DNA of 64,000 nucleotides. It comes from a bacterium (GTDB lineage Bacteria; UBA8248). The position numbers and the translations under genes were made by a program. Of the stretch, positions 14,921 through 43,488 are shown one piece after another (the first letter of the stretch is position 1; every line of letters begins with the position of its first letter). The notes beneath the pieces are model-generated. The model saw only the letters and a list, made by a program, of their open reading frames with translations, was not told the origin of the DNA and made no database searches. The DNA lies in NCBI GenBank assembly GCA_965261085.1, contig OZ253442.1, positions 1,184,001 to 1,248,000 of the forward strand. The letters run 5' to 3'.

Positions 14921-16006
14921 ATGCCGGATCTATCCATTAACGGCCTGACGAAGGCCTTCGGCGAGACCATCGCCGTCAATGACCTTTCGCTCGAATTCAA
15001 AGAGGGCGAATCGGTGGTGCTGCTCGGCCCGAGTGGGTGCGGAAAGACCACGCTCCTCAAGCTGATCGCGGGTTTCCTCCAGCCAGGCGCGGGCGAGATC
15101 GCCATTGGCGGCCGGGTCATCTCGACCCGCCACGAGATGCTTCCCCCGGACCACAGGAAAATGTCGATGGTGTTCCAGTCCTACGCCATCTGGCCGCACA
15201 AGTCGGTGTTCCAGAACGTGGCCTACGGGCTCGAAGTGCGGAAGATCAAAAAGGCCGAGATCGAAAGGAAAGTGATGAACGCCCTTTCCCTCGTCCAACT
15301 CGACGGCCTCGAGGGCCGCTACTCCACCGAGCTCTCGGGCGGACAGCAGCAGCGCGTGGCCCTGGCGCGAGCGATCGTGGTCGAACCCTCCCTTCTTCTG
15401 CTGGACGAGCCTCTCTCGAACCTCGACGCCAACCTCAGGGTTGAGATGCGCGGGGAGCTGGCCGACCTCCACGACCGGCTGGGCATCACGTTCATCTACG
15501 TCACCCACGATCAGGCCGAGGCGATGGTCCTGGGGGATCGGGTCGTTTTGATGAATCAGGGAGTCATGGTCCAGCAGGGCCCGCCCGAGGAGATCTACGA
15601 GACCCCAAAGACCCGTTTCGCGGCGAATTTCATGGGGACCTCGAACATTTTCACCGGGTCGGTGGCCAGCGGGGCCGGTGCCAACGGCGCGATCCGGGTG
15701 GACACGAAGTTCGGGCCGGTCGCCGTGGCGCTGGGCGCCAGGCAGGCCCCCCCCACGGGGGAGGAGGTGCACTTCTGCATCCGGTCCGAACTCGTTCAGA
15801 TTCATCCGGGCGCGCCTTCTCCCGAGTCCAACCGGTATACGGCACGGATCCTCAAGCGGCAGTACTACGGCAAGCACGTTCAGTACGTCATGGATCTCGC
15901 GGGCGAGGAGCTTCAGGTGGAGTCTTTATCGGACATGAACGTCTCGGCGGGATCGGAAGTGACTATCGAATTACCTCCGGAGCATTGTGTGTTCCTGGAG
16001 GAGTAA
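14921..16006 (+). CDS. ABC transporter ATP-binding protein (FbpC/PotA-type)
   Basis: [26 protein letters not shown]-like tail. Confidence 0.95.
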
Positions 16007-23622: not shown

Positions 23623-24675
23623 GTGATGCCACGTAACAAAAAGATGGTGACACGGAGAAGTTTTCTGAAGAAATCTGCCTTTACTCTGGGAGCATTAACT
23701 GCAGCACCTGGCGTCCTTGCCAAGCCTAGGAAGGGGTACGCTGCTAGCTTCCCAAGCAAGCCAATACACGTGACAGTGCCCTGGAGACCGGGTGGCGGGA
23801 CGGATATTTTTACACGGGGCATTACGCCTGCCTGGGAGAAAGTTCTAGGAGTTCCGATTGTCGTCATTAACAAGCCTGGGGGCAACAACCAGGTCGGCTA
23901 CGAATATGTCTACGGTAAGGAACCTGATGGCTATAACATGGTCTTCGGCCAGCTGCCGAATTTGAATATCACATATCTCTTCCAGAAACCCCCCTACAAG
24001 GCGGAGAGCTGGTCATGGCTGGCGCTGGTTCACGATGACCAGCAGATTTTCTACTGCGCCAAGCAAGCGCCGTGGAAAGACCTGGGAGACCTGGTTGGAG
24101 ATATGAAGCGCCGCCCGGGAGAGATTAGTGTCGGAACCACCTCAAGAGGCTGGCATTACTACTTTCCCCGCCTTCTCGAAAAGAAGACGGGCCTTAAGTT
24201 CGGCAAGATACTCCCGTTCGAAAGCGGAAAGGGAGCCAGTTTGACTCGTGAAATCCGAGGCGGCCATCAGCTGCTCGCGACTCATGGTAGTTGGGTCTCC
24301 TGGGCTCGCAGAGTTCCAACATTTGCACGCGGCTTGGGGACGTGTGCCTTGAAGAGAAGTCCCTTGTGGCCAAATGTTCCTACGTGGAACGAGGTCCTGC
24401 CTCCAGAGCAGCATGTCACAGAGGATGAAATCTACCCGACTGTTTACAAGGGTTTCGTGTTTCCGAGTGCAGTCAAAGAGCAGTATCCAGACCGTTGGAA
24501 AGTGCTAGATGAAACATGGCGACAAACGATGACCACGAAGGCATTTAAGGATGCCGTTGCTAAACTTAGGGCGACAACAGTTATTCGATATAAGGGACTC
24601 GATGAGGCTGACAGAGAGATGAAGAAGTTCGACAAGATTTTGACGGAGCACAAAGACATTTTCGCGCGAAGGTAG
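23623..24675 (+). CDS. tctC: Tripartite tricarboxylate transporter binding protein (TctC/Bug), Tat signal
   Basis: TRRSFLK Tat motif, FPSKPI.VTVPWRPGGGTD, NKPGG, PDGY. Confidence 0.9.
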   Translation: MMPRNKKMVTRRSFLKKSAFTLGALTAAPGVLAKPRKGYAASFPSKPIHVTVPWRPGGGTDIFTRGITPAWEKVLGVPIVVINKPGGNNQVGYEYVYGKEPDGYNMVFGQLPNLNITYLFQKPPYKAESWSWLALVHDDQQIFYCAKQAPWKDLGDLVGDMKRRPGEISVGTTSRGWHYYFPRLLEKKTGLKFGKILPFESGKGASLTREIRGGHQLLATHGSWVSWARRVPTFARGLGTCALKRSPLWPNVPTWNEVLPPEQHVTEDEIYPTVYKGFVFPSAVKEQYPDRWKVLDETWRQTMTTKAFKDAVAKLRATTVIRYKGLDEADREMKKFDKILTEHKDIFARR

Positions 24676-24761
24676 AACAAATTTGTAGGGTGAAGCTGGA
24701 TCAAAGACAGGGATGAGGGGGAAACGTTCAATCCTGAGCACCCTCAGGAAGTAGGGCACTT

Positions 24762-25178
24762 ATGCGCTTACATCGCTTATTCTTGCCAACTTTTGCGGTT
24801 GTATTCTCAATCGGTTATTTCTTTGACACCTACTCTCTTCCATTTTCCTCGACTTTGTATCCGCGAATCCTCATAGTTCTTCTTCTTGGCTTGTCCGTCT
24901 ATGAGCTTTGGAAAGAACTCCACGATGCCAGCCCCGAAACAGAAGAAGAGAAAATGCCAAATCGCCAAATCTTGTCAAAGATTGGTGCTGTGATCATTCT
25001 TTCTGTTGCCTATGCCCTCACGGTCGAGCGCATGGGCTTCCTACTGGCGACTCCCGTATTAGTATTTTTTATGCTTCTCGTGTGCCGTGTGACGGCCTGG
25101 AAATCGATACTCATGGCAATTTGTACGACAGCGGCATTTTATACTGTATTCGTAAAGTTTCTTCTTCTTCCGCTTTAA
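24762..25178 (+). CDS. tctB: TTT small permease TctB
   Basis: 4 TMs, YPR, GFLLAT, C-terminal F...L.LP. Confidence 0.8.
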   Translation: MRLHRLFLPTFAVVFSIGYFFDTYSLPFSSTLYPRILIVLLLGLSVYELWKELHDASPETEEEKMPNRQILSKIGAVIILSVAYALTVERMGFLLATPVLVFFMLLVCRVTAWKSILMAICTTAAFYTVFVKFLLLPL

Positions 25179-25190
25179 GGGAGCGTCACC

Positions 25191-26690
25191 ATGTATGACG
25201 CGATGTGGCCCGGGCTTCATTTGCTTTTTAAATTCGAAAATTTGATTTTTCTGTTTATCGGTGTACCAATAGGAATTATTTTTGGCGCTTTACCAGGAAT
25301 AAACTCGACCACTGCCATGGTATTAATGCTTCCCTTCACTTTCTGGATGAAGCCAGAACAGGCCGTCATATTTTTGATGGCTATTGCTGGTGCCTCAATT
25401 TACGGTGGCGCAATTCCAGCGATTCTTTTTGGAATGCCTGGAACACCAGGATCTAGCGTAACCGCCATTGAGGGCTATGCAATGACCCGCAATGGCGAAG
25501 GGATTAGAGCTCTTTCCATATCAGCTCTCGCCTCTTCCATAGGAGCTTTCCTGAGCGGCATTTCCTTAATGGTACTTGCTCCCCTCCTCGCTGTTTTCGC
25601 TCTCACATTCAGCTTTCCGGAGTTGGTGCTTATTGCTTGCTTTGCCCTTATCTTCCTCGCAGCCTTCAAAAAGTCGATGACTAAAGGACTCCTGGCCGCT
25701 CTTTTAGGACTTTTATTGGCAACTATCGGGACAGACCCTTTCTTTGGATACCCCAGGATGATTCTGGGCGTAGTCGCGTTATATGAGGGCCCATCGATTA
25801 TTGTAGCCCTTATTGGCTTCCTCTGCTTTTCTGAGGTTCTGATCCTTTGTGAGAGGCAGAGCGTAGTTAGGAGGGATGTGGAAACCCGAAGGGGAATAAG
25901 AGAAGTATATTTAGGTATATCCGATGTTTTACACAAACCAATCCATGTGCTTGCCGGCACTATCGCGGGTATCATAGTTGGCGCAATTCCTGGAGCTGGC
26001 ACTGGCATAGCCAACTTTCTGGGATACGTCGCGGGGAATGCCTTATCCAAGAACCCCGATCAATTTGGCAGAGGGACAGTCGATGGCGTTATCGGACCAG
26101 AGGCCGCAAACAGCGCAGTGGAAGGCAGCTCGTTGATTCTCGCGCTTACAGTTGGTATCCCCGGTAGCGGGATGGCTGCTGTAGTTCTTGCAGCGCTTAT
26201 GATTCACGGCATTGTACCGGGGCCTGATGTTTTCATACTTAAAGGCGAGCTCGTGTGGGCTGTGATGTGGTCAATTCTTTTGGGCGCTGTCGTAGTTTGC
26301 ATTGTGGGCTTGACATTGTGCAATTATTTCGGCCGCTTGGTGAGCCTTCCCATATCATATCTAGTCCCATTTCTAGTCCTGTTCATGATCATCGGGAGTT
26401 ATGCTGCGCGCAATTCAGCAGTCGACATTGTGACGATGATAGTCCTTGGGGTGCTTGGCTATTTCATGGCAAAATCTGGGTATGAGCGGCTGGCCATCGT
26501 ATTTCCGTTTATTCTTGGTGGGATGATTGAGCAAGGAATTGTATTATCGTTGCAACGCTCAGACGGGAACCCCCTCATATTCTTCCAAAGGCCTCTCGAT
26601 TTAGTGCTTTGGGCTTTTCTTGTCCTAGGGCTTCTCTCAATTAGGTGGCTGAAACGGCGAGTAGAGCGCACAGCTGAGCCATTCGTTTAG
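25191..26690 (+). CDS. tctA: TTT large permease TctA
   Basis: GALPG, YGGAIPAIL..PGTP, PEAANSA, GIPG, G..PGP. Confidence 0.92.
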   Translation: MYDAMWPGLHLLFKFENLIFLFIGVPIGIIFGALPGINSTTAMVLMLPFTFWMKPEQAVIFLMAIAGASIYGGAIPAILFGMPGTPGSSVTAIEGYAMTRNGEGIRALSISALASSIGAFLSGISLMVLAPLLAVFALTFSFPELVLIACFALIFLAAFKKSMTKGLLAALLGLLLATIGTDPFFGYPRMILGVVALYEGPSIIVALIGFLCFSEVLILCERQSVVRRDVETRRGIREVYLGISDVLHKPIHVLAGTIAGIIVGAIPGAGTGIANFLGYVAGNALSKNPDQFGRGTVDGVIGPEAANSAVEGSSLILALTVGIPGSGMAAVVLAALMIHGIVPGPDVFILKGELVWAVMWSILLGAVVVCIVGLTLCNYFGRLVSLPISYLVPFLVLFMIIGSYAARNSAVDIVTMIVLGVLGYFMAKSGYERLAIVFPFILGGMIEQGIVLSLQRSDGNPLIFFQRPLDLVLWAFLVLGLLSIRWLKRRVERTAEPFV

Positions 26691-27768: not shown

Positions 27769-29020
27769 ATGGAAAGGAGAGCGGGAGACTTCCTGCGCGG
27801 GGGCGCGGACCCCCGGGAGGGGGAGCACCTCTTCGAGCGCAAGGCGGCGGACGCTCTCTCCCCGCGCGCTCACTCGATGAGCGAACTGCTTCTCGCGAGT
27901 TCGTTTCACATCGCCTCGGGGGAGGGCGAGGGCAAGGGTGAGTCCGGACGCTGGTCGCTGTGGGGCCCGGGGGGCGCGCTCGAGCTTCAGCGGCAGGGAC
28001 GGCGACCTCGCGCTGGACGGCGACGTCACGACGGGTCTCGTGGGCGCGGACTACGAATCGGGCAAGGCGCTCCTGGGCGTGGCGCTCGCCTGGAGCGCGG
28101 GGGATGGTTCCTACAAGGGCGCAGGCGCTGCGGGCGAGCTCGAATCCACGCTTGCGAGCGTATACCCCTACCTGCGCTACAGGATGAGCGAGCGCCTCTC
28201 GGTCTGGGGCGTCGTGGGAATGGGCGAGGGCGACCTGACGCTTAAGACGCCCACGGGCGAGACGATGGAGACCGGCCTCTCGCTGGCGATGGCGGCGCTG
28301 GGGGTGCGCGGGGCGCTTCTCTCGAGGGCGGGCTACGAGTTGGCGGTGAAGTCCGACTTCACCTTCGTGCAGAGCGAATCGGAGAAGACGACGGGCCTGG
28401 CCTCCGCGGAGGCGCAGACGAGGCGCCTGCGCCTCGTGTTCGAGGGTTCGCGCGAGATGGACTTGGGCGCCGGTTCGCTGACGCCCTCGGTGGAGGTGGG
28501 CCTGCGCTACGACGGTGGCGACGCGGAGACGGGCGCCGGCGTGGAGTTGGGCGGCGGGGTGCGCTACGCGGCTTCGGGGCTCACGATGGAGGTCCGCGTA
28601 CGGGGCCTCCTCGCGCACGAGGAGAGCGACTATGAGGAATGGGGCGTGAGCGCCTCGGTGGTCTTCTCTCCCGGTTCGGAGGGGCGCGGGCTCTCGATGC
28701 GCGTGGGTTCGGCCTGGGGCGCCGCCTCGGGCGGGGCGGGCCGCATCTGGACGGGCGGGGCGGCGGGTCTCGCGGGGAGTGCGGATCAGCCCGGCGCGAG
28801 CCTGGACGCGGAGGTGGCCTACGGGCTGGACGCCTTGCGCGGCCTGCTGACGCCGTATGCGGGCGTGGCGCTCTCGGAGAACGGCGAGACCTGGCGCGCG
28901 GGCGCGCGCTGGAAACTCGGTCCCGCCTTCGACTTGGAGCTGGAGGCGAGCCTGAAGGAACCCGTAGGGGATGAGGAGCCCGAAGGCGGACTCCTCCTGC
29001 GCGGCTCGAGAAGGTGGTAG
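27769..29020 (+). pseudogene. Truncated, frameshifted autotransporter-like beta-barrel remnant
   Basis: LLLASSFHIASG...GRWSLWG shifts frame near 27965 into LDGDVTTGLVGADY...LTPSVEVGLRYDGGDAETGAGVELGGG...LRGSRRW; no passenger or signal peptide. Confidence 0.7.
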
Positions 29021-29401
29021 GCGGACCGCTTCCCGCTTGAAGCGGACGCCGCCGCCGGAGGAATCCGGCGGCGCTACGGGGCGCGGGCGGTGGTTCCCGA
29101 ACCGACGTTTCGGGCTGGACTTTGGAGGAGCGCCGCACGATTCACCGACACGTGTAAAAGTTCAGTCGTGGGGTGATAGAGTGGACCACAGCATCGACTG
29201 GGTCGATCTTGACGGCGGGTTCACGGACATGATGACCAGATTGAGAATGCTAGCCGTATACCGCAACCGCTTGATTCTTCTGCCGCCTTCGAATTAAGAA
29301 AGCACCGGGTCAAGCCAACTATGATCGGGAAGAACACAGAAACGTCGCTGGCCCCGACGACGCCATCACCCCACGACTGAACCATTACGACGTGGACGCG
29401 A

Positions 29402-29562
29402 CGGGATGCGCAGAAGTTTCAATGAATCCGCTTTCGTTTTGATTACTAATTGTAGAAGGCAGATTCTGAATAAATTCAGAAAACTTATATATCCAAAATA
29501 ATTTCAATAAGATATAGGGGTTTCATAGCCGATCAAAACCTCTTAATGTCTCTAAGACGAGC
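29402..29562 (+). repeat. Direct repeat copy 2 (161 bp, AT-rich)
   Basis: Matches 8739-8899; weaker similarity extends about 40 bp upstream (CCATCACCCCACG). Confidence 0.95.
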
Positions 29563-29593
29563 GAAGGCAAAAACAGAATGAGGATTGAACCCT

Positions 29594-29875
29594 CTACCGA
29601 ACCGCCTGGACTTCGAGCCGAAGCCCCTCGCGCTCCTGGAGACAAGCGATGACCTCGAACAAATTGCGGGCTTGGGGTCAGCCCCGACCGAAGAGGGAGT
29701 CGAGCTTCCCCGAGGAGGGGAAGGTCGTGCCGGCCCGAACATGCGCATCAAGCTCTTGGGCGATTTTCCGGTGAGGTCAATCGCGACTGATGAAGGAGCG
29801 ATTGCTACGATTGATGAAAGCCGATGGTCGCGTTGATGAAATCGCGCAGCACCGCCTTGCCGACTTCCATCCGAT
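29594..29875 (-). pseudogene. Disrupted addiction-module antitoxin/HTH regulator
   Basis: Fragments EVGKAVLRDFINATIGF, DLTGKSPKSLMRMFGP and QARNLFEVIACLQEREGLRLEVQAVR* separated by inserted sequence; second fragment IGKAVLRDIINATIGFE at ~30378-30430. Confidence 0.65.
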
Positions 29876-29890
29876 GTGTGTCTCAGAATT

Positions 29891-30039
29891 ACTCCCCCCT
29901 TGAGGGGGAGTCAGTGAGGTAAGGGCGTTAGCCCGCTAGTGAACTGGTGGGGGGAGCTTTTACTTTAGAATCATCCCCCCACCGCATCAGCCTTCGCACA
30001 AAACACTCGGCTTCTGCGACTCCCCCTCAAGGGGGGAGT
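29891..30039. repeat. REP/BIME-like element (paired ACTCCCCCCTTGAGGGGGAGT palindromes)
   Basis: Two inverted palindromes with internal hairpins; inverted homolog at 30451-30642. Confidence 0.8.
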
Positions 30040-30232
30040 GAATTTGAAGACTCTCAATGCGGAGTGAGAAAATCCTACCCATCCAAGCCGCATCTCTGAG
30101 ATTAGAAATCTTGCCTGCTTAAGGGGTTGCGTGATAGGAAGGTGTGGAGAAGATGACTTGTAAACCGACGGCGGTGGATGCGGACAATGCGTCCCGCTTC
30201 TTTTAGGAACAATGAAACCAGAGGAGCAACCC

Positions 30233-30364
30233 ATGGCGAAAGAACAGAACCCGCCCCCGAGCAGAGCCGGACAGCCTTCGGGAATCAATAAAGGGGTATC
30301 CCGTAAGCCCCCGGTCGCCGGCAAACCTCCTCCTCCCCCCGCTCCACCTCCCAAGAAGAGGTAA
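30233..30364 (+). CDS. 43-aa proline-rich micropeptide ending PPPPPAPPPKKR
   Basis: GAGGAG RBS + ATG; paralogous fragment at 32880-32951 differs mostly at synonymous sites. Confidence 0.7.
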   Translation: MAKEQNPPPSRAGQPSGINKGVSRKPPVAGKPPPPPAPPPKKR

Positions 30365-30450
30365 GGGAGCCCAGGGTTTCGAAGCCGATGGTCGCGTTGA
30401 TGATATCGCGTAAGACGGCCTTGCCGATTATCCAATCTGAACTGCGGATT

Positions 30451-30642
30451 CACTCCCCCCTTGAGGGTCATTTCCGACCGAGAAGGGAGGGAATGTCGCA
30501 GAAGACGAGCCTTTGGCGAAGTCTGATGCGGTGGGGGACGATTCAAATAAAAAAGCTCCCCCCACCGGTTCGCTTTCGGGCTTGCGCCCTTACCTCACCG
30601 TCGGGCTTTCCCCTCGGGAAGCCCGACCTCAAGGGGGGAGTG
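30451..30642. repeat. REP/BIME-like element, inverted copy with inserted hairpins
   Basis: Reverse complement aligns with 29891-30039; single palindrome also at 31482-31502. Confidence 0.8.
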
Positions 30643-30683
30643 AAGAGAGCTTGCGCCACCCGATGCCACAGCTTCGTACTACC

Positions 30684-31289
30684 CTACTTGAACCGCGCCT
30701 CGTTAAGCCGCCTGTAGACCTCCGTCCCTCTGAGCACGGGGTTCTCTTCCGCATAATCCCCTGGCGTTTTACCCGATCTGTCTCTTGCCGACGGATTTGC
30801 TCCTGCATCCAGCAGGGCCTCCACGACCGCCGGAGTCTTGCCCTCCAGCGCCGCCGTGTGCAGGGGCGTTTGTTTGTATTTATCCCGCGCGTTCGGATTG
30901 GCTCCGGCTTTCACCAGCGCCTTCACTATCGCCGGCGATTTGCCGAGCGCTGCGGCAGTGTGCAGGGGAGTCGTTCTTTTATACAAGTTCCGCGCGTTCG
31001 GGTCGGCTCCCGCTTTCACCAACGCCTCCACGACCATCGGATTTTTGCTGTAAGCCGCCGCTGTGTGCAGGGGAGCGTCTCCGTTGAATATGCTCCGCGA
31101 GATCGGGTCGGCTCCCGCCTTCAGGCAACGGGAGACATCCGATTCATCGGCGCGCTCGAAGAACTTCTGCGTGTTCCAGTCGTCACACGAAACTTCCGCC
31201 GCCGCGTCGGACGCCGCGCCCATCGCCACCGCGAGCCACAGGCAGAATCCCGTAAGGAACACTTTGAAAAGTCGGGTAAGTAGAGGCAT
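30684..31289 (-). CDS. Secreted ankyrin-repeat protein
   Basis: Signal peptide, EVSCDDWNT.KFF cap, three PLHTAA...V.ALV.AGA.PNAR repeats. Confidence 0.93.
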   Translation of the reverse strand: MPLLTRLFKVFLTGFCLWLAVAMGAASDAAAEVSCDDWNTQKFFERADESDVSRCLKAGADPISRSIFNGDAPLHTAAAYSKNPMVVEALVKAGADPNARNLYKRTTPLHTAAALGKSPAIVKALVKAGANPNARDKYKQTPLHTAALEGKTPAVVEALLDAGANPSARDRSGKTPGDYAEENPVLRGTEVYRRLNEARFK

Positions 31290-31312
31290 CTCAATTTCTT
31301 CCTTTTCCCCCA

Positions 31313-31374
31313 CCTCTTCCACTTCACGAAATCCAGCCACCACGTCTATCTTACCGCGTTTTTGAGATTAGGCC
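31313..31374 (-). repeat. Duplicate of the 3' end of CDS 34646-35353 (copy C)
   Basis: CTTCCACTTCACGAAATCCAGCCACCACGTCT...GAGATTAGGCC. Confidence 0.85.
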
Positions 31375-31714
31375 TTGTTCGTCATTCCTGAGTATGCCGG
31401 AATCCAGGCGGATGAGGAACGGGCTGTCGATCCCGACAATAGAGGGTAAAACGCGATAGAAGTGGTAGATGCTCCGTAATAACTCCCCCTCATGGGGGGA
31501 GTGAAGAAACCTACCCATCCAAGCCGCAGTTTCGTAGTACCCTCCTTGAACCGTGCGTCATTCAACCGTCGAGGTTTCACTAAGTATCCCCGGTGTGTGC
31601 GAGGTGTTAATCTTATAGTGTGCATTGCTGGGTTGATCCCAGTCTCATCAGAGTATTGCCGAACTGTCTTGAAAACACTCATCCAAAGTGATGAACATCT
31701 AGTAGAGGAGTGAG

Positions 31715-32641
31715 ATGTCTGAATCTGAAACGAGAACTAACGGAGGCGACGAGAGGCTTGAACTAGACGCGCTAAAGGCCAGCATCCTATCGAACGAAAT
31801 TTCAATCTTCGATCTGTTACGTTCTGTGCCAAGTGGTGATTTTTGGGCGTTTGTTCAGTGGAAGCGCTTATTCTACGTCTTGTTGGAAGAACCAAACTTT
31901 CGGCAGCAGTTTGTAGCAGAGTCGCGCTCAATGATGGTTAAGGCAGGTTTCAACCCTGATGATGACGTGATAGGTAAGAACCTTACGAAAAAGGATGCCT
32001 ACCGTCGGTTCTCAAAGCTCGCAAACAAGCGATCCCAAGCGTTCGATACTCAGCCTTCACTTCTAAACGGCGACACTTTTGAAACATGCCTCGCCCAGTA
32101 CAAAACTCTTATCGGATATGTCGAAAAGCTGTGGGCTGAAGCGTGTCAACTTTATAAGCATGGAAATTTTCCACTTGCGACTTTCCTTTCCATACTTGTC
32201 ATTGAGGAGATTGGTAAACTAACGAATCTCGCTCAAGATCTTATTTTGTATGATGTGCCGCGTCCCGCTAAGCAAGTTCATACGGTCGAACGAGATCACC
32301 GAACGAAGCATTTCATAGGCGTTGTATCGGGGGCGCTGATCAACGCCCGACTAGATCGCGTGTTGGGCAAGGATGTTATCCGCAAAATCCTACACTGGGC
32401 CGAAAGCGACGAACTTGAAAAGATCAGGCAAAGCTGCCTCTACATCGATGTGCAAGATGGCCGTGCAGTGATACCACACGAAAGCATCGATGCAGAACGT
32501 GCTCGGGTGTTCACGGTGCTTGCGGGGGAGTTGATAGCGGAAGTTCTAGGCCATTTCCCGTGGGAATTTGAACGCATGCGTGAAAACGCGATCGCTTTCG
32601 AGAGCGCGATAGGTATGCCTGAGAAAAAAATCGCTCCGTAG
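31715..32641 (+). CDS. AbiV-family (HEPN) abortive infection protein
   Basis: FLSILVIEEIGK, DHRTKH, RQSCLYID motifs; lower GC than flanks. Confidence 0.78.
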   Translation: MSESETRTNGGDERLELDALKASILSNEISIFDLLRSVPSGDFWAFVQWKRLFYVLLEEPNFRQQFVAESRSMMVKAGFNPDDDVIGKNLTKKDAYRRFSKLANKRSQAFDTQPSLLNGDTFETCLAQYKTLIGYVEKLWAEACQLYKHGNFPLATFLSILVIEEIGKLTNLAQDLILYDVPRPAKQVHTVERDHRTKHFIGVVSGALINARLDRVLGKDVIRKILHWAESDELEKIRQSCLYIDVQDGRAVIPHESIDAERARVFTVLAGELIAEVLGHFPWEFERMRENAIAFESAIGMPEKKIAP

Positions 32642-32751
32642 TACCAAAAAACCTAGCTGGAGTCTTCTTTGAGGGTTAGCTAGTCAGAGTCGGTTGTGAT
32701 TCTCGTGAGCGACTGATTCGTATAGAAAGAACGACATAAGCTCCCCCTCCC

Positions 32752-32877
32752 CCCCTCTTCCACTTCACAAAATCCAGCCACCACGTCTCTCTTACGGCGT
32801 TCCCCAGATTAGGCCGCATGGCCGCGCTTCGGGGGGTGCCGTAGGCGGCTTCCTCCCAGGCGTCCGTGGTGGGAATG
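32752..32877 (-). repeat. Duplicate of the 3' end of CDS 34646-35353 (copy B)
   Basis: About 126 bp near-identical to 34650-34775. Confidence 0.9.
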
Positions 32878-32879
32878 AC

Positions 32880-32951
32880 GGAGTGTCTTCCAAGCCACCA
32901 GTGGCCAGCAAGCCCCCGCCTCCCCCGCCTCCCCCGCCGAAGAAGAGGTGA
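32880..32951 (+). pseudogene. 5'-truncated paralog of the proline-rich micropeptide
   Basis: GVSSKPPVASKPPPPPPPPPKKR*. Confidence 0.65.
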
Positions 32952-33181
32952 GGCGCTGATTCATGGGTTGGGCGGCTGATACTCAGGGAAGCAGTGCAAG
33001 TGGTGTCGTCGAATGTTTTGCTCAGAACCACGAGGTGGATTTGCTTCAAAAGCGTGTCGAGAATATAAAACATCTATGGCCTTCTGAAAAAGACAACTGC
33101 CACCTTCGTCAAAACATGCAAGGAGGTCAATGAATAGTAAAATGCCGCCGGAAAGTTAGTATTTGACGGGAGCACGCAGGG

Positions 33182-34537
33182 ATGGAAAATCTTCAGGAAC
33201 GCGCAGAACGTTTGGCTGAACAATTTACTGAAAAGGCGCGTAAACCGTTAGTCATCGAGTTTGCAGGAGTTCCCAAAGCGGGTAAGACGACCACGCTGTC
33301 ACATGTGCAGACGTTTCTCAAGCGTTGTGGCTTTCATACTGATGTCGTAGTCGAACGTGCTTCAGTTTGTCCGATTCGCGATAAAAAGCACGCGAATTTC
33401 AACATCTGGACCGCATGTACTACACTCGCTCAGATTTTGGAAAAAACACAAAATCCGCCACGGCCTGGCGACCCGCAGATTCTTTTTCTTGATAGAGGGC
33501 TTTTCGACTCTATCTGTTGGTTGACCATGATGGAACGGCTCTCTCGCTTGCGCTCGGATGAAAAAGCTTGCGTCCAGCAATTCCTCACCATTGATGATTG
33601 GAGGAAGCGTATCTCGGCTGTTTTTGTGATGCTTGTTTCTCCGAAGGACGCGATGAAACGCGAGCAAGGAATAAGGCCTGTGAATGCGAAAGAGGGCTCC
33701 ATAATGAATCTTGAGATCCTTGGGAAGATTAGGGAAGTGAACGAACAATGCGCCAAGCAACTTGAGAGGGATTTTCGGATTTATCGAATCAATACGTCTA
33801 GTGGTGCTGCCGGCCGAGATCAAGAATCTACGGCGGAGACGGTCACCGATGTCATTCTCGGTCTGATAGAAGAACAGCTCGCGGAAAATATACTTTCATG
33901 CTCCAAGGAAACCGTAAAAGAATTCTTTGGGGACAAGAGTTTTGTTGATGCTTCCAAAGCGAATGAACTGGCGCGGTATTACGAAGAATCTGACGATAGC
34001 AATTTCAAGACCAGAGAAGAGGTGGAAAACGATGCTTCTCGCGTCCAGGCGCTTCCCGTGGTGGTTGTTCGGAATGCGGACGGGGATGTACTTCGTCTTC
34101 GCCGACGTGAAAATAGGGGCGATAAGCCCCTTCATGATAAGATCGTGATCTGGGCCGGTGGACATGTTCGATGTGAGGATGCCGTCAACGGCGCTCCACT
34201 TATAAATTGCGCCATACGGGAACTCGGAGAGGAGTTGCGACTCCAACTCGAATCCTCATCGATGAAACTGATTGGTGCCTTGTACTTCGACAATGGTGGA
34301 AGTACTTCGAAGCATGTTGCAATCGTTTATGAATGGCGCGCACTCAAAAACGACGTTTCGGTGGTGCTGAGTAGAACCGAATTCTTTGAGAGGCGCGGAA
34401 CGTCTCTTAGCGGGAGTTTCGCGTCTGTCGATAAACTCGTTGAAGATGTTAAAAACAAAAAACTTATAGAACCTTGGTCTATTGAGTTGGTACGAGAATA
34501 TTTAGCGAAAGATAAATTTGAGCCACGTCTGTTTTGA
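33182..34537 (+). CDS. P-loop nucleotide kinase (dTMP kinase-like)-Nudix hydrolase fusion
   Basis: IEFAGVPKAGKTT, LFLDRGLFDS; C-terminal WAGGHV...CAIRELGEEL, KHVAIVY, EPWS. Confidence 0.8.
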   Translation: MENLQERAERLAEQFTEKARKPLVIEFAGVPKAGKTTTLSHVQTFLKRCGFHTDVVVERASVCPIRDKKHANFNIWTACTTLAQILEKTQNPPRPGDPQILFLDRGLFDSICWLTMMERLSRLRSDEKACVQQFLTIDDWRKRISAVFVMLVSPKDAMKREQGIRPVNAKEGSIMNLEILGKIREVNEQCAKQLERDFRIYRINTSSGAAGRDQESTAETVTDVILGLIEEQLAENILSCSKETVKEFFGDKSFVDASKANELARYYEESDDSNFKTREEVENDASRVQALPVVVVRNADGDVLRLRRRENRGDKPLHDKIVIWAGGHVRCEDAVNGAPLINCAIRELGEELRLQLESSSMKLIGALYFDNGGSTSKHVAIVYEWRALKNDVSVVLSRTEFFERRGTSLSGSFASVDKLVEDVKNKKLIEPWSIELVREYLAKDKFEPRLF

Positions 34538-34645
34538 ACGGTTAATCTCTGTTGTGAGCAGTCGAAGTTGAGTAGACTAAATTGCAATAGTTTCCTGCGC
34601 GCACAATTTGGCGGTTATCGGCAGATTCTTTTTCTCTACCCCCCC

Positions 34646-35353
34646 TCACCCTCGCTTCCACTTCACGAAATCCAGCCACCACGTCTCTCTTACTGCGTTC
34701 TTGAGATTGGGCCGCATGGCGGCGCTTCGGGGGGTGCCGTAGGCGGCTTCCTCCCAGGCGTCCGTGGTGGGGATGGTGGGGTCTTCCATGTCGTAGAGCG
34801 CGATGATGCGGCGCGCGCTCCTCTTCGTCTCCTGTATTTCCGCCTCCGCCGTCGCGCCTCCGGTGGCGGCGGTCTCTAACTGATACACGCGGCCCCGCGT
34901 CATGCCTTGGACCTCATAGAGGCGGTCCAGGTGTTCTTCGCGGTACCAGGCGAGCATCTCCTCTTTTAGCTCCTCGCCCTCGGGGTTGGGGCACACCATG
35001 TAGAGATAGGGCGAGTCGTAGCGGTGCGGCTCGCCGATGGAGACTTCCAGGCTGTACACGGCGCGCTCGGCGTTTTTGATGAAGGCCATGCACTCTTGCG
35101 TCCAGGGGGAGGGGTTGTCCCTCGATTCGCGGTAGTAATCGCTCTCAAACGCCGCGAGGCTGTCCCCCTCGAAGGTGCAGAGAATGTTGTGGTGCGCGCT
35201 GGCGTCCACCGCGTTGTAGCGATAACCCACGCGAAAGCCGGGGCCGTCCATCCTGTCCGTCGAGTGCTCGCAGTTGTGCCACTTTCTGAATTCCTCGTGG
35301 TTCTCGGGGTCGACGTTCAGCCAGATGGCGACGAGCGCCTGGGTCGGGTTCAT
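34646..35353 (-). CDS. Two-domain EthD/DUF4286-like dimeric alpha-beta barrel protein
   Basis: Repeated EF.KWH..EH / ..AWYREEHL motifs. Confidence 0.65.
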   Translation of the reverse strand: MNPTQALVAIWLNVDPENHEEFRKWHNCEHSTDRMDGPGFRVGYRYNAVDASAHHNILCTFEGDSLAAFESDYYRESRDNPSPWTQECMAFIKNAERAVYSLEVSIGEPHRYDSPYLYMVCPNPEGEELKEEMLAWYREEHLDRLYEVQGMTRGRVYQLETAATGGATAEAEIQETKRSARRIIALYDMEDPTIPTTDAWEEAAYGTPRSAAMRPNLKNAVRETWWLDFVKWKRG

Positions 35354-35366
35354 CCCAAAAATCTCC

Positions 35367-36794
35367 TTATTCGATGCCTGCGAGGCGTTTCGCGTAATCG
35401 ATGGCGGGGCCGATATTATGCTCGCGCCAGATGGTCATCTTCTCGGCCTCGATGCTGCCTTCCGCGTGAATCGCCAGCACGGCCTGATAGCCCGCGAAGT
35501 CGGACGCCGTAATCTCCGCAATAAGGTTCATGAGCCTGAGCCGCTCTTCCGTCGAGGCGGAGGGGGCGGCGCCCAGGTATTTGTCGATGAGTTCGGCGAG
35601 TTTTGGGTCGTCCAGGTCCTCCGCACTCGGGCCTGTGACGAGCAGTCCGCCCGCGATGTCCTGCACCCATGCGAGGGCCTGGTGGTAGCCCGTGGCGAAG
35701 TGGAGCTTCGCGATGTTGATAATCTCCGCATTCGGCACGGCGACGCCGTCCGTGACCTTGCATTCCCTGGCGGCCTCGCGCGTCATGCCCCGGCAAATCT
35801 GCGCGTAGGAGATGAGCTTGGCGAGCTTATCCCGCACGTGGCCCGCGCGGAGGATGCCGTTGTACTCCGCCATCAGGTGTGACGCGCCCACGAACAGGTC
35901 CACCAGCGGCAGCTTGTAGCTCACGGCGGTGAAGCGGTGGAACTCAACGAAAGTCTTGGCCAGTGGCCCGGCCATGTCCCCTTCTCCGTTTAGGAACACG
36001 CGCTCCCAGGGGACTTTTACGTTATCGAAAATGGTGAGCGTCTCCATCATCTTGTGTTTGCTTGAAATCGGGTTTTCAAACTCCGTTCCTTTTCTGCCGC
36101 CATACCCGCTGGCCAGCATGGTGAGGCCTGCCGCATTGGCCGGCACGGCGCAGGCCACGGCATACGCCTCATCGCCTTCTCGCATGTTTCTCGTCGGCAG
36201 CACGATTATTTCGTGCGCATTCGTGGAAACGGAGGTGTGCGCCTTGGCCCCGCGCAGGGTGACGCCTTCGTCATCCTGGGCGACGACGCGGACGTAATAA
36301 TCGGGATGCGCCTGATCGCCGGGGCCTTTGCCCCTGTCTCCTTTCACGTCGGTCTGGGCGACGGCGACGGCCAGGTCGTTGTCCCGGCAGTGATCGTGGA
36401 ATTTCTGGACGCGGGGGAGGTAGTCCGTGCCTAAATTCTTATCCATGTAGGAGGCCAGCAGACGTAAGGCGAAGAGCGCGTCGGTTCCGATTTCCTTGAT
36501 GAGTACGACGAGCGTTCCCCCTAAGGCCGTGGCGCGCTCGATGAGGGCGCTGCGCTTTAAGAGATCGTCCGCGCATTCGGGGATGTGGTAGTAGCGCGAG
36601 TAGGGGCCGTTCGGACCTTCGACCAGGGCGAGTTCGGGCTCGTCTTCGGCCATCTCGTAGTCGATGGCGGCGTGATCGACCGCCACGCCGATGACGGGGT
36701 GTGCGGTTACGTCCTCCACCCGCTCGCCCCGGTAATAGACCACGCGGCCATCGCGCAGGCTTTGTTTGTATTCACTCGGACTCATGAGCGGCAT
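35367..36794 (-). CDS. HpaB/AbfD (4-hydroxyphenylacetate 3-hydroxylase) family flavoprotein
   Basis: Y..SLRDGR.VYYRGERV.DV..HP, AQTDVKGDR, LRGAKAHTS, IFDNV.VPWERVF. Confidence 0.85.
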   Translation of the reverse strand: MPLMSPSEYKQSLRDGRVVYYRGERVEDVTAHPVIGVAVDHAAIDYEMAEDEPELALVEGPNGPYSRYYHIPECADDLLKRSALIERATALGGTLVVLIKEIGTDALFALRLLASYMDKNLGTDYLPRVQKFHDHCRDNDLAVAVAQTDVKGDRGKGPGDQAHPDYYVRVVAQDDEGVTLRGAKAHTSVSTNAHEIIVLPTRNMREGDEAYAVACAVPANAAGLTMLASGYGGRKGTEFENPISSKHKMMETLTIFDNVKVPWERVFLNGEGDMAGPLAKTFVEFHRFTAVSYKLPLVDLFVGASHLMAEYNGILRAGHVRDKLAKLISYAQICRGMTREAARECKVTDGVAVPNAEIINIAKLHFATGYHQALAWVQDIAGGLLVTGPSAEDLDDPKLAELIDKYLGAAPSASTEERLRLMNLIAEITASDFAGYQAVLAIHAEGSIEAEKMTIWREHNIGPAIDYAKRLAGIE

Positions 36795-36958
36795 GGCGCT
36801 TTCCTCCCGGTCGTGGCCACACCCTGCGGGCGGGCGTTTTTCATGTTAGAGAGTGGACAGGGTATCTTCTTTCGCGCTTCGGTGAAACGCCGCCCACGGG
36901 GCGTGAGCAAAAAATGAGGGCCGCCCACGCTTTTTTCACGCGGACGGCCCGGCAAACT

Positions 36959-37216
36959 CTACGCTTCGGCGAGTTCGCTCAATTTGCCTTCCTTGTCGTA
37001 GGCCTGGAGCTGGGGAAAGCCGCCGATGACCTCGTCGTCGATGACGATCTGGGGCACCGACTTGCCGCCCGTGCGCGCGAGCATGGCGTCCCATTCGGGC
37101 GTGCCGCCGAACACCAGGTGCTCGGTCCATTCGAGACCGCGCTTTTTCAAGAGATTCTTCGCGGCCAGACAGAAGGTGCAGGGCTGGGTGGTGTAGACCT
37201 CGATTTGTGCTGCCAT
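36959..37216 (-). CDS. grxC: Glutaredoxin (GrxC-like)
   Basis: YTTQPCTFC, SVPQI, IGGF. Confidence 0.85.
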   Translation of the reverse strand: MAAQIEVYTTQPCTFCLAAKNLLKKRGLEWTEHLVFGGTPEWDAMLARTGGKSVPQIVIDDEVIGGFPQLQAYDKEGKLSELAEA

Positions 37217-39180: not shown

Positions 39181-40052
39181 CGAAAGCCCCCTTCATGCCC
39201 GAACGTCCCCCCGGGAAGCCGGCGACCTGGTTCACCGAGTACCACGGTCCGGGAACGGGCATCACGATGAAGGTGTTGCGCACCCTGTATTCGGCGAAAA
39301 GCGCGTTTCAGGAAATCACCCTGGTGGAAACCGAGGATTTCGGGCGCGTCCTCCTGCTCGACGGCGTCATCCAGACCACCGAGCGCGATGAGTTCATCTA
39401 TCACGAGATGCTCACACACGTGCCCATGTGCTCGCACCCTGCGCCCAGGAACGTGCTCATCATCGGCGGCGGGGACGGCGGCTGCGTGCGCGAGGCGCTC
39501 CGGCACGAGACGGTCGCGCGCGTCACGCTCGTTGAGATCGACGGGATGGTGGTGGATTGCTGCCGCGAGTTTTTGCCGTCCATCGCCGGAAAGTTGGGCG
39601 ACCCCCGGGTGGAGATAAGAATCGAGGACGGGGTGAAATTCATCGAGGGCCATGAGAAGGCGTTCGACGTCATCCTGGTCGATTCCACCGACCCGGTCGC
39701 CATGGCGAGTCCGCTGACTAAAACCTCCTTTTTCCGGGCGGCTAAGCGCGCCCTCGCGCCGGGCGGCCTGTACGCCGCGCAGACGCAAGGGCCCGTGTTC
39801 GAGGGCCACATGATGGGGAGGATCACGAGGCGCATCAGGAGGGTGTTTCCGGGCGCATCGACTTATCTGGCGAACGTGCCGACGTACCCTGGAGGGATAT
39901 GGTCGTTCGCCCTCGCGCCGAAATCAGGGAAAGCGGACGCCCGCGCCAAGCCAAGGGAGCTGCCCGCAGGCGAGAATACCCACTATTACTCCCCCGAGGT
40001 CCATGCGGCCGCATTCACGCACCCTCCCTACGTGGCGGAGATTTTGAAGTAA
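39171..40052 (+). CDS. speE: Spermidine synthase
   Basis: [44 protein letters not shown]. Confidence 0.95.
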
Positions 40053-40909
40053 TGGCCCGCATGGCCCACCCCCGTTTTCTTTGCGCTGAGAGCGCCTTTG
40101 AACCAGCGCGCACCGTTCTCCTGGGATGCCCTTTCGATGAGACGGCGAGCTTCAGGCGGGGCGCGCGTCTCGGCCCCGGTGCGATACGCGAAGCGTCCGA
40201 TTGTCTCGAAACATACAGCCCGCATCTCGATAAGGATCTGGAAGACGCCGCCCTGTGCGACTTGGGCGACGTTGATTTCGCCTCCGATGATACCCAAGCC
40301 GTTCTCGATTCCATCCAGGCCGAGGCGAGGGAGATATTCCGCGCAGGCAAGCGTCCCGTATTCCTGGGCGGTGAGCACCTGGTGAGCCTGCCCCTTGTGG
40401 AGGCGGCGCTTGAAGTATTCCCGGGTCTGGCCGTTTTCCAGTGGGATGCGCACGCGGATTTGCGCGATGACTATCTGGGCGAAAAACTCTCGCATGCCTG
40501 CGTCATGCGGCGCATCCTGGATCTGGAGGGCGTCGGCCCGCTCCATCAGTTCGGCGTCCGCTCCGGCACGCGCGATGAGTTCGAATGGATGAGGGCGAAC
40601 GAGACGCTGCGCCCCCTCACGCCCGAAGGGGTCGAATCGGCCCTGGAAGAAGCGGGCGACCGCGCCATATATCTCACCCTCGACGTGGACGTCATAAACC
40701 CCGGCGAGATGCCCGGAACCGGCACTCCCGAACCCGGCGGTCCCGGCTTCGATGCGATTATGGATTGCATCTCGGTTCTCGACGCCTCGGGCGCGCGCAT
40801 CATCGGCGCCGACGTGGTGGAACTCGCCCCTGAATTGGACCCCTCCGGCGCAAGCGCCGTCGCCGCCGCGAAGCTGGTGCGTGAACTCGCGCTGGTAATG
40901 GGGGCGTGA
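40052..40909 (+). CDS. speB: Agmatinase
   Basis: GGEHLVS, DAHADLR, SHA, DVDV..P..MPGTGTPEPGG. Confidence 0.93.
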   Translation: MARMAHPRFLCAESAFEPARTVLLGCPFDETASFRRGARLGPGAIREASDCLETYSPHLDKDLEDAALCDLGDVDFASDDTQAVLDSIQAEAREIFRAGKRPVFLGGEHLVSLPLVEAALEVFPGLAVFQWDAHADLRDDYLGEKLSHACVMRRILDLEGVGPLHQFGVRSGTRDEFEWMRANETLRPLTPEGVESALEEAGDRAIYLTLDVDVINPGEMPGTGTPEPGGPGFDAIMDCISVLDASGARIIGADVVELAPELDPSGASAVAAAKLVRELALVMGA

Positions 40910-41615: not shown

Positions 41616-41652
41616 GCCGGCGTTGCAAAGGCGATGTGGAACGGGAGGCAGC

Positions 41653-41838
41653 CCCGAACCCGGTGGCCCGGGCTTCGATGCGATTATGGATTGCATCGGT
41701 ATTCTGTGGACTGCAGGTGTTCGCATCGTCGGCGCCGACGTGGTGGAACTCGCTCCCGAATTGGACCCCTCCGGCGCAAGCGCCGTCGCCGCCGCGAAGC
41801 TGGTGCGTGAACTCGCGCTGGTAATGGGGGCGGAGTAG
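41653..41838 (+). repeat. Diverged duplicate of the speB 3' end
   Basis: Aligns with 40727-40909 (PEPGGPGFDAIMDCI...ADVVELAPELDPSGASAVAAAKLVRELALVMGA). Confidence 0.93.
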
Positions 41839-42477: not shown

Positions 42478-43488
42478 TTATGAGCGCAATTTCTTCCTGA
42501 ACGCGTTTGTGTCGAAGTCGAACCAAGGCGGTCGTTGAATTTTGAACCGCGCCTCGCGCACGTTGTATACAGTGTCGGGTTTGGCTTCGAAGAGAACCTG
42601 CCTGATGATCGACAGCGCAGCGCCGTACGCGTCAGCGGCGTTGGATAGCGTTATGTCACCGCCATACCGGATGTCAGTCGCGTCGTCTCCGGACAGGATT
42701 AGGGCCAGCTTTACGCGATCAATGGCTTCAGCGCCCAGACTCTCTGCCCGATCTGCCAGTGCTGAAAGATCGTGGGTATAAGGCGGCGTCTGTCCTTTTC
42801 GCCGAATTAGGAGCTTCAGCGCTTTCTCCGTGGCCTGCGACGCATCCCACGCGGCCGAGCGCAAGCAGGCGTCGTTCCGTTCACAAAGATTCCTAGCGCT
42901 GCTTTGAATATCTGTGCGAACCGACCCAGCTAATTCCGCGATGCTTAAATTCTCATTATGCACCAGTGCCCGGACGTCGAAGCCTATGCTCCGAACCAAT
43001 TTTGCGGTCTCTAAAGCCTCTTTTCGGACAACGTCCAGTCCTATGCCTGATAACCCATCGACCACGCCTCTGCTCTGAATCCAGCTAAGTGGGTCTTCTT
43101 CTGCTTGGACCGATGCAGGCCATCCAATCCAGACCATATTCGGCTCATCTGCGGATATCTTGAAACGCTTGGGTACCTGCATGGCGAAAGGTGTTCCATG
43201 AATAAGTAACATCGACACAAAGACCCCGGTTTCGTCGTTATCGACAAAGTCGCCGTAGCGGTCGCGATACCAGTCCTCTATGATGAACAGAAATGCTCCG
43301 TGCGCCACGCTGCGGTAAAATGTTTCGAAATCGGAAAATTCCATCGCCGTATCGCACAGAACTTCGAAAGCCTTCAATTTGCGGGCTGAAATCGGTATGT
43401 TCGCCTGACTAAGTGCCCCGTCGATTTTCGGGAGTTCTTCGTTCAGAAATGCAGCGATCTCCTTCCAGTTACTTATGTCGTCGGACAC
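42478..43488 (-). CDS. HEPN-domain protein
   Basis: C-terminal WDASQATEKALK....PPYTHDL..L...RY. Confidence 0.75.
   Translation of the reverse strand: MSDDISNWKEIAAFLNEELPKIDGALSQANIPISARKLKAFEVLCDTAMEFSDFETFYRSVAHGAFLFIIEDWYRDRYGDFVDNDETGVFVSMLLIHGTPFAMQVPKRFKISADEPNMVWIGWPASVQAEEDPLSWIQSRGVVDGLSGIGLDVVRKEALETAKLVRSIGFDVRALVHNENLSIAELAGSVRTDIQSSARNLCERNDACLRSAAWDASQATEKALKLLIRRKGQTPPYTHDLSALADRAESLGAEAIDRVKLALILSGDDATDIRYGGDITLSNAADAYGAALSIIRQVLFEAKPDTVYNVREARFKIQRPPWFDFDTNAFRKKLRS

Follow-up and report, generated by a model that had tools for sequence, protein, structure and literature searches.

Gene-end stubs behind a conserved core gene of a UBA8248 bacterium as probable scars of two duplicative events at a gain/loss hotspot

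The 64-kb window analysed here (64,000 nucleotides; positions 1,184,001 to 1,248,000 of contig OZ253442.1, assembly GCA_965261085.1, GTDB lineage Bacteria; UBA8248) is part of a host genome that consists of a single contig of 4,267,820 bases. It contains a gene for a protein of 235 amino acids (aa), referred to below as the core gene, whose 3' end is present three times in the same orientation: as the live end of the gene (copy A) and as two stubs (copies B and C), with accessory genes between the copies. In our judgement the stubs are probably the scars of two separate duplicative events, that is, of homology-anchored illegitimate recombination and of duplication, which took place at a hotspot of gene gain and loss without site-specific machinery. 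The features of the locus are the following (window coordinates, with the strand where one applies):

35367–36794, minus strand: HpaB-family gene, upstream neighbour of the core gene and right-hand anchor (Pfam HpaB_N 6.6e-72, HpaB 4.4e-53)
34646–35353, minus strand: core gene (235 aa) with a weak resemblance to DUF4286 (Pfam E=7.6e-5, below the cut-off)
34641–34782, minus strand: copy A, the live 3' end of the core gene (repeat search, BLAST)
33182–34537, plus strand: P-loop NTPase/kinase-like and Nudix-like gene of an uncharacterised family (weak Pfam matches), the P-loop/Nudix gene below
32874–32951, plus strand: 3' fragment of smallP, a Pro-rich open reading frame (ORF), cut at the join with copy B and colinear with the intact ORF of the relative G008
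32872–32895: point at which core-gene sequence (142 nt before the stop) is illegitimately joined to smallP, from the alignment
32743–32884, minus strand: copy B, dead stub comprising the final 142 nt of the core gene; stop codon lost, frame broken near the inner end
31715–32641, plus strand: abortive-infection gene of the AbiV (HEPN) family (Pfam, TIGR04498, PADLOC)
31488–31568, minus strand: remnant of a lost proximal ankyrin gene, namely its last ~45 nt (motif RRLNDARFK), with the hairpin of a miniature inverted-repeat transposable element (MITE) behind it
31375–31435: hairpin resembling repetitive extragenic palindromic (REP) elements, a diverged member of a genome-wide family, which abuts copy C
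31308–31374, minus strand: copy C, stub of the last 67 nt, which keeps the old spacer of stop, G run and ribosome-binding site (RBS) before the ankyrin start codon
30684–31289, minus strand: ankyrin-repeat protein gene, the distal conserved ankyrin gene and left-hand anchor (Pfam Ank 7.3e-24)
30212–30364, plus strand: intact paralogue of smallP, 50 aa, left of the ankyrin gene

The similarity of the three copies is far beyond chance. The repeat search matches 32743–32884 to 34641–34782 over 142 nt in direct orientation with 90% identity (copies B and A), and it finds a 67-nt unit three times, at 31308–31374, 32749–32815 and 34647–34713, each 88% identical to the reference copy. When positions 29000–34900 were compared with the whole genome of 4,267,820 bases by BLAST, the E values were 2.4e-49 for A/B, 2.6e-17 for C/A and 3.1e-16 for C/B, and no fourth copy of the core-gene 3' end was found. 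BLAST extends copy B to 32892 with one gap. Copy C is 93% identical to copy A over the 59 nt aligned by BLAST, and 88% identical over the 67 nt of the repeat search.

The genes between the copies differ in how firmly they can be assigned. The gene at 31715–32641 belongs to the AbiV family above the model cut-offs (PF18728, 84 bits against a cut-off of 27.1; TIGR04498, 89.7 bits against 27; PADLOC AbiV, E=2.7e-28), and its role in defence is a prediction. The P-loop/Nudix protein represents an uncharacterised fusion family: its NUDIX match is weak (20.6 bits, cut-off 21.1), no PADLOC or NCBIfam model matches it, and its nearest Atlas clusters are ‘hypothetical protein’ of ~460 aa, which come largely from Pseudomonadota and of which 44% of the members carry NUDIX. 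Both genes lie on the plus strand and are convergent with the core gene, which, like the ankyrin gene, is on the minus strand. The GC content is 44–52% in the accessory genes (45–51% in AbiV) versus 61–64% in the core gene and its HpaB neighbour.

For the comparison with relatives, 22 other genomes of the genus (designated by G numbers; the present genome is G000) were searched, ~20 kb downstream of the core gene were fetched from 14 of them, and the proteins of the window were mapped on these loci. The core gene is present in all 22 genomes, and it has the HpaB gene as its neighbour in each of the 14 loci. Behind the core gene the relatives contain:

G008, G011, G015: the P-loop/Nudix gene (with intact smallP in G008)
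G014: a split GmrSD restriction gene
G001: a DNA methylase–HNH (MTase-HNH) fusion
G013, G002: two small ORFs
G004, G006, G010, G020, G021: one to several ankyrin paralogues
G009: a cyclase-family gene directly
G007: ORFs without a Pfam family

Since the gene content differs among these 14 relatives, the slot behind the core gene is truly variable, and it is a real hotspot of gene gain and loss. Genes of defence type are recognised in the slot itself in 3 of the 15 genomes, and they differ from genome to genome (AbiV in G000, GmrSD in G014, MTase-HNH in G001), as in core defence hotspots; in other genomes the slot contains ankyrin genes or genes without an assigned function. The first-pass annotation of this DNA, which was made from the sequence alone, had described three same-orientation copies of a gene 3' end with accessory genes between them, in the order kinase-Nudix, copy B, AbiV, copy C and ankyrin. 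The copies are borne out by the repeat search and the genome BLAST, and the order by profile searches of the window ORFs; the copies were placed correctly, but their extents (now 32743–32884 and 31308–31374) were drawn slightly too narrow. It had also proposed repeated gain of single defence or host-interaction genes behind the core gene, and the loci of the relatives support the uptake of different accessory, defence or host-interaction genes in different species: the cassette content varies, and the invariance which it had named as speaking against this was not seen.

Copy C marks an old junction. An orthologue of the distal ankyrin gene (69–85% protein identity) is found in 8 of the 14 relatives, and copy C is located just upstream of it in the same eight. 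Unless it is further eroded, its end in the relatives is always at 34709–34713 in the coordinates of the core gene, and the homology with G008, G004, G006, G014 and G021 continues through the REP-like element to 31435–31446. The break between copy C and the REP-like element thus predates the species, and it therefore gives no information on a recent mechanism. Copy C retains a (pseudo-)stop, a G run and the RBS-like motif AAGGAAG, followed ~17 nt on by the ATG of the ankyrin gene. The stop codon of the core gene itself is directly followed by a run of G, and in G020, G004 and G021 an ankyrin start follows the live core gene at a similar distance. Because the spacing of stop, G run, RBS and ATG is as behind the live genes, copy C is taken as the original junction of the core gene and the ankyrin gene. 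Also, the genes between copy C and the live gene in G004, G006 and G021 are ankyrin paralogues. Copy C thus most likely dates from an ancient tandem duplication of ankyrin genes which started 67 nt inside the core gene, to judge from the sequences.

Copy B differs from copy C in age and in kind. The AbiV gene next to it is found in none of the 22 other genomes of the genus; among metagenome contigs, its best relative (of 11 loci) is 66% identical. The P-loop/Nudix gene is present in 6 of the 22 other genomes (7 of 23 with this one) with 78–87% identity, and adjoins the core gene in 3 of the 14 loci. Its identity is 86–87% in the near clade and 78–79% in the far clade, which parallels the divergence of the core gene. 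The window is colinear from 32874 to 37000 with G008, the closest relative (92.8% over hpaB and the core gene), in which smallP is intact. SmallP lies upstream of the P-loop/Nudix gene in G008 (15612–15761 of the fetched locus) and G011; it is kept in several species of the genus, and its paralogues are found on both sides of the ankyrin gene. The protein ends with a proline run and then KKR. The fragment in the window is 74% identical to the intact paralogue at 30287–30366 in the repeat search. At the join, GGAAT (32872–32876) is shared by the core gene and smallP, with core-gene sequence to the left and smallP to the right, and a zone of partial similarity extends over 24 nt to ~32895.

Of 127 sites in the coding part, ten distinguish copies A and B: seven third, one second and two first codon positions. 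Comparison of copy A with live orthologues gives the same pattern (e.g. 8/0/2 for G021). Because the third-position bias matches that of the live orthologues, copy B may have had a past in a working gene, and its differences suggest that it diverged while part of such a gene in another lineage; it has since lost its stop codon and reading frame. Copy B is specific to this genome and probably arrived recently with AbiV. For the live gene, the sliding-window identity of hpaB and the core gene to the 14 relatives shows no sharp switch of the kind expected from a recombination break.

The following order of events would account for the locus. Initially, the core gene would have been followed, after a spacer of 8–17 nt, by an ankyrin gene. 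In the first event, a duplication that began 67 nt before the end of the core gene would have set one or more further ankyrin genes between the two, with copy C kept before the distal ankyrin gene; the proximal ankyrin genes would then have been replaced, lineage by lineage, by P-loop/Nudix, GmrSD or small ORFs. The remnant at 31488–31568 is 77–80% identical to 30627–30710, i.e. the 3' end of the intact ankyrin gene and its MITE (the ankyrin part being 31523–31568). The second event would have started from a chromosome like that of G008, with the core gene, P-loop/Nudix, smallP, copy C and the ankyrin gene. The putative donor would be a relative whose core gene was directly followed by AbiV, most of the proximal ankyrin gene there having given way to it. 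Homologous recombination in the flank of copy C and the ankyrin gene would form the left end; at the right end, the donor core gene (142 nt before its stop) would have been joined illegitimately to the resident smallP at GGAAT, with the deletion of ~1.2 kb of resident DNA. Copy B would be a passenger piece of the donor core gene, and the process would be homology-facilitated illegitimate recombination (HFIR). Several characteristics of arrays formed by HFIR are found at the locus: a conserved anchor, variable genes behind it, anchor stubs before displaced genes, and a joint with microhomology.

Similar stubs are found elsewhere in the genome. The genome-wide self-BLAST for 3'-end duplicates that the first-pass annotation had proposed gave 13,682 non-self matches, which were examined with a crude set of 3,451 long ORFs; low-copy direct repeats of 45–600 nt, with at least 80% identity and at most 30 kb apart, were kept. 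In 12 repeat pairs (11 loci including that of the core gene) a 3' stub lies downstream of an intact gene; two pairs have the partner upstream, and seven mirror pairs consist of a 5' stub upstream of an intact gene. At least ten further loci thus contain a dead 3'-end copy 0.2–2.6 kb downstream of the gene, with one or two accessory genes between; examples, in genome coordinates, are:

2676776–2679999
3135481–3137906
712785–716391
884972–888008
2804667–2808963

An ankyrin gene lies between a cupin gene and its stub, an M78-peptidase gene between an NFACT-family gene and its stub, and an RTX-repeat gene between a molybdopterin oxidoreductase gene and its stub. Other genes with stubs include those of a cyclase-family protein and a nitronate monooxygenase, and an agmatinase-like gene of the same window. 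The last 187 nt of the latter, an arginase/agmatinase-family gene at 39899–40909, recur 926 nt downstream at 41647–41832 with 88.8% identity; an ORF of 185 aa without a known family lies between them, and a HEPN-domain gene (42481–43488) just beyond. The cyclase-family gene (2679283–2679999 of the genome, 1.46 Mb away) carries its own 343-nt stub (96.5%). It is possibly the orthologue of the gene found a few kb beyond the ankyrin gene in relatives; if so, the old synteny is broken left of ~29560 of the window.

In nine of the 12 pairs the stop codon is no more than 10 nt from the end of the homology, and the ends of the 5' cases are scattered; no shared motif was found at the break points of the 11 loci. 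The live gene and the stub are both often followed by a start codon within 6–30 nt. We attribute the pinning near the stop codon to tight, operon-like spacing, because an insertion keeps both genes functional only if it duplicates the overlap. The differences between genes and stubs in the 12 pairs number 30/26/73 at codon positions 1/2/3, with a third-position share of 57% (73/129). In a bolder reading, the stubs would be the footprint of a lineage-wide, recombinase-independent stacking of single accessory genes behind housekeeping stop codons, maybe through an unrecognised activity or small elements with replacement gene ends, the stub being kept for the translation or promoter signals of the displaced gene. 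We regard this as quite doubtful; its support comes mainly from the pinning of the homology in the nine pairs.

Concerning site-specific mechanisms, the stubs of the core-gene end in the genus are 67, 142, ~190–213 (G021, G014) and 270 nt (G013) long. That of G014 (213 nt) is inverted and lies 28 kb from the core gene, and that of G021 (~190 nt) consists of two frame-shifted pieces 1.5 Mb away; both head the same module of SIR2-STAND NTPase, GmrSD and methylase-like genes at different genomic places (5413–10613 of the fetched G014 locus and 4875–10060 of that of G021). The module of G014 adjoins an IS66 transposase and a DruA-like gene. The 270-nt stub of G013 precedes an ankyrin gene of 437 aa on another contig. 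Because there are at least four break points for one gene, and each stub stands before whatever followed the gene, the process is probably not site-specific. A single shared crossover position with an identical core, which characterises integrative conjugative elements (ICEs), integrative mobilizable elements (IMEs) and cis-mobilizable elements (CIMEs), is not found. No integrase or resolvase family matches any of the 130 ORFs of the relatives' loci (the 14 slots and the displaced stub regions of G013 and G021), and the two transposase matches among them, a Mutator fragment and IS66, are both in G014. The genome has 22 Phage_integrase matches, none in the window and the nearest ~66.6 kb before its start, and no match to Resolvase (serine recombinases) or to Y1_Tnp (PF01797, of the type of REP-associated tyrosine transposases, RAYT); the controls of these searches were positive, for Y1_Tnp in six of 14 control genomes. 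No IntI-type recombinase lies next to the array among the window ORFs scanned, the repeat search, which uses no attC covariance model, shows no inverted repeat bounding the cassettes except MITE/REP hairpins, and the cassettes do not share one orientation behind a common promoter, as those of integrons do.

The two 8-mers proposed as REP-type break motifs are both present, GTCATTCC at 31381–31388 and GGAATGAC at 32872–32879, and only GTCATTCC, at copy C, is within a genome-wide REP-like element. A search with 31360–31470 gave 17 matches in the genome, none of them at the break of copy B, and GTCATTCC and its complement occur 233 times in the genome versus ~118 copies expected from the base composition. 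At copy B, GGAATGAC is the join of core-gene sequence and the cut smallP; since live orthologues read GGAATG there, diverged core-gene sequence accounts for it.

Eleven public sequencing runs from five studies hold part of the stretch, and four runs of one sample, which may be the source of the assembly, hold 93–96% of its words. In run X7, contigs with 0 differences cover 31392–32853 (from AbiV into copy B) and 32844–34682 (copy B, the join and P-loop/Nudix, into copy A), so that both unusual joins, core gene/smallP and AbiV/stub B, exist in reads. The depths of these contigs, 6 for AbiV and 4.7 for P-loop/Nudix, are like those of other exactly matching contigs; X7 also holds a more abundant relative (depth 21–24, 15–43 differences per piece). 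Run X2, which is labelled as a sponge metagenome, has pieces with 0–5 differences; the genus occurs in runs with this label, and the organism, which is uncultured, is apparently sponge-associated. X1, X11 and X2, from three other studies, have near-identical P-loop/Nudix pieces and leave 31761–32513 (AbiV) uncovered without a bridging contig, which is no evidence of its absence. An X11 contig of 409 nt matches 32892–33249, and its first 51 letters are off the window and hint at a different left flank. The listed joints 29666>30682, 29869>31307 and 31274>31376 have short sides or unknown letters and touch repeats, and they were not used.

Several observations weigh against the proposed second event, or against the two-event reading as a whole. 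A donor with the core gene next to AbiV is found neither among the 22 genomes of the genus nor among the 11 metagenome AbiV loci, of which the surroundings were not looked at, and copy B is about equally far (88–92%) from every core allele examined. The microhomology comprises only 5 nt within a fuzzy zone of 24 nt and at one joint only, and the codon-position test is based on ten differences. A mirror scenario, in which P-loop/Nudix and copy A came in and AbiV and copy B were resident, gives the same final map. As copies A and B share 50 identical nt (32822–32871 and 34720–34769), the contigs from short reads cannot phase their order. Any route by which DNA entered, competence or another, is putative in this organism. 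Concerning the stubs elsewhere in the genome, homology that ends at the stop codon also fits elements which carry a replacement gene end, and the third-position share of 57% lies, undecisively, between rough expectations for decay in place and for two live alleles.

The shared stretch of copies A and B is also what a Campbell-type integration predicts. A circular unit of 1898 bp (the smallP fragment, P-loop/Nudix and a 142-nt gene end) would have entered by a single crossover in the 3' end of the gene, in a chromosome with AbiV behind the core gene, and it may loop out again through recombination of A with B. The direct repeats of 142 nt, with 50 identical nt, flank one unit and give exactly the map of a single crossover, the join of the core gene and smallP would be the closure point of the circle, and the contig graph of X7 breaks at the shared stretch, leaving room for a circular or tandem form. 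We nevertheless consider it unlikely: in 3 of 14 relatives, including the closest one, the core gene has P-loop/Nudix with intact smallP as its resident neighbour, the gene unique to this genome is AbiV and not P-loop/Nudix, and the depths of 4.7 and 6 in X7 give no sign of extra copies. The same stretch of 50 nt and the abundant relative beside the matching strain (depth ~5–6) in X7 are what could be expected if the locus were an assembly artefact, with two strains carrying different cassettes merged at the shared gene end. Both joins, however, are in contigs with 0 differences at matching depth, strain mixing would not join core-gene sequence to a cut ORF, the genome is one contig of 4.27 Mb, and analogous stubs are found in the assemblies of five relatives, all of which makes an artefact very improbable.

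Direct repeats of a gene 3' end around foreign DNA are, on the other hand, the classic signature of tyrosine recombinases, and integrase-less elements with a replacement gene end might have accreted in tandem here through a recombinase acting in trans. The closeness of the homology end to the stop codon (10 nt or less), at this locus as in nine of the 12 pairs, looks as if only the coding sequence were restored, the genome has its 22 integrase-family matches, and conjugation genes are located at 1–8.4 kb of the window. A trans-acting recombinase is hard to reconcile with four break points for one target, with the lack of a shared motif at the 11 loci and with the lack of an integrase among the 130 ORFs of the relatives; the inner end of copy B also lies inside, and truncates, the coding sequence of another gene, and the paralogues of its own neighbour beside copy C speak for duplication. 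We therefore hold this explanation to be improbable. Capture assisted by REP elements and RAYT (HUH) transposases, in which hairpins at the stub ends would be cut and joined, is largely refuted and has next to no probability left: a REP-like hairpin does abut copy C, a complementary 8-mer is found at the break of copy B and the genome is full of hairpin MITEs, but there is no Y1_Tnp, the REP stretch has no match at copy B, the 8-mer is common, and the junction of copy C and the REP-like element predates speciation.

Two separate duplicative events at a hotspot are thus the reading that we favour, and the suggestions of the first-pass annotation on mechanism are partly supported. Homology-anchored illegitimate recombination is the best fit for copy B, given the alignment at the join and the codon-position pattern, and its view that gene 3'-end stubs mark successive events is supported. 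Its statement that neither integrase nor insertion sequence is present holds for the locus (elsewhere the window carries an IS1595-type transposase and conjugation genes), and the absence of attC/IntI machinery finds support in the lack of an IntI-type gene there. Both 8-mers exist and copy C does break at a REP-like element, but the break of copy B is not REP; REP/HUH assistance is contradicted by the lack of Y1_Tnp with positive controls, by the position of the break of copy B outside any REP element and by the ancestral junction of copy C, and the RAYT/TnpA-REP gene for which it had proposed to look was not found, the genome having no match to Y1_Tnp. An integron-like array does not describe the locus, with two events only that differ in age and kind, copy C ancestral (8/14) and cassettes not co-oriented. 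Nor is a gain of single genes one by one outwards supported: the gene-proximal P-loop/Nudix is an old resident (7/23) and the distal AbiV the newcomer.

The remaining features of the window are as follows.

29885–30645: MITE-like patchwork with GC-rich hairpin ends and many genomic copies

Repeats are frequent in general, and 17.3% of the genome bases (738,719 of 4,267,820) have at least one other self-BLAST match. The N-terminal hydrophobic segment of the ankyrin protein looks like a signal peptide, judged by eye. A scan for promoters and terminators in 30600–35400 gave no more than in shuffled sequence, and a sensitive BLAST of the spacers behind AbiV (32639–32745) and behind P-loop/Nudix (34535–34648) found no relatives. 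Positions 1–8400 contain conjugation genes (TraC, TrbI, TraK-like) together with genes resembling an HTH_17 excisionase and an S24 peptidase repressor; the whole is probably one end of an ICE. A repeat of 205 nt at 8698–8902 recurs at 29363–29565 (88%), and a transposase gene of the IS1595 family (ISXO2-like, E=1e-33) is located at 12107–12772. A fragment of an autotransporter beta-domain (27938–29020), without a passenger domain, has a GC content of 70–75%, much higher than that of the DNA around it; low-GC TctCBA transporter genes (23623–26690; GC at third codon positions 0.47–0.58) flank it on one side and the repeat patchwork on the other.

How defence genes are swapped in hotspots without genes of mobile elements is still debated, and at this locus the joints are preserved. 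Two of them can be read: an old gene/gene junction carried along as a stub, and a fresh microhomology join which truncates a resident ORF. To judge by the same scars at ten or more further loci, a noticeable part of gene gain in these repeat-rich genomes may come about by this route. In practice, gene-end stubs can serve as markers of recent insertions and of pre-insertion states in metagenome-assembled genomes.

Among known systems, the arrays of orphan 3' ends and immunity genes behind genes for Rhs, CdiA and type VI secretion system (T6SS) effectors are the closest; they are explained by displacement (the ‘C-terminal displacement’ or ‘sequential displacement’ model), with older downstream genes pushed outward behind anchor stubs, and HFIR is proposed for them in the available part of the source (PMC5361080); the outcome of HFIR, as far as it is described in the part of PMC3240628 at hand, matches the pattern of the joint of the second event. 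The locus shares with these arrays a conserved anchor and displaced genes behind anchor stubs; the incoming DNA of the arrays is from related strains, as it would be here. The reference list of PMC5361080 includes Jackson 2009, de Vries & Wackernagel 2002, Prudhomme 2002 and Meier & Wackernagel 2003. The displaced 3' ends of those arrays are variable toxin domains and the genes kept are their immunity partners, whereas here the 3' end is conserved and housekeeping-like, the genes are unrelated and in either orientation, and only two events are stacked.

The core defence hotspots of Pseudomonas aeruginosa and E. coli, of which some are said in the accessible parts of the papers to have ‘no identifiable modes of mobilization’ (PMC10121019; compare PMC10250203), also consist of a fixed slot between conserved genes with different defence genes (here AbiV, GmrSD and MTase-HNH). 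In contrast to these hotspots, as portrayed in those parts, the slot also takes ankyrin genes and genes without an assigned function, and the stubs physically trace the exchange. Tandem accretion of islands at a gene 3' end is known from the ssrA islands of Dehalococcoides, where the part of the source at hand ascribes it to site-specific recombination (PMC3146451). As in ICEs, CIMEs and ssrA islands, direct repeats of a gene 3' end separate stacked foreign segments. CIMEs serve as the comparator for accretion without an integrase. All of these have one fixed repeat length and core and an integrase in at least one unit, whereas the present locus has varying break points and yielded no recombinase. 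Integron arrays, finally, are similar in that single-gene units, including genes of defence type, are stacked at one place; unlike them, the locus has no IntI, attI or recognisable attC, its genes do not all point the same way, and what is repeated is part of a neighbouring gene. It is a well-preserved case of ordinary recombinational accretion at a hotspot and not a new kind of cassette system.

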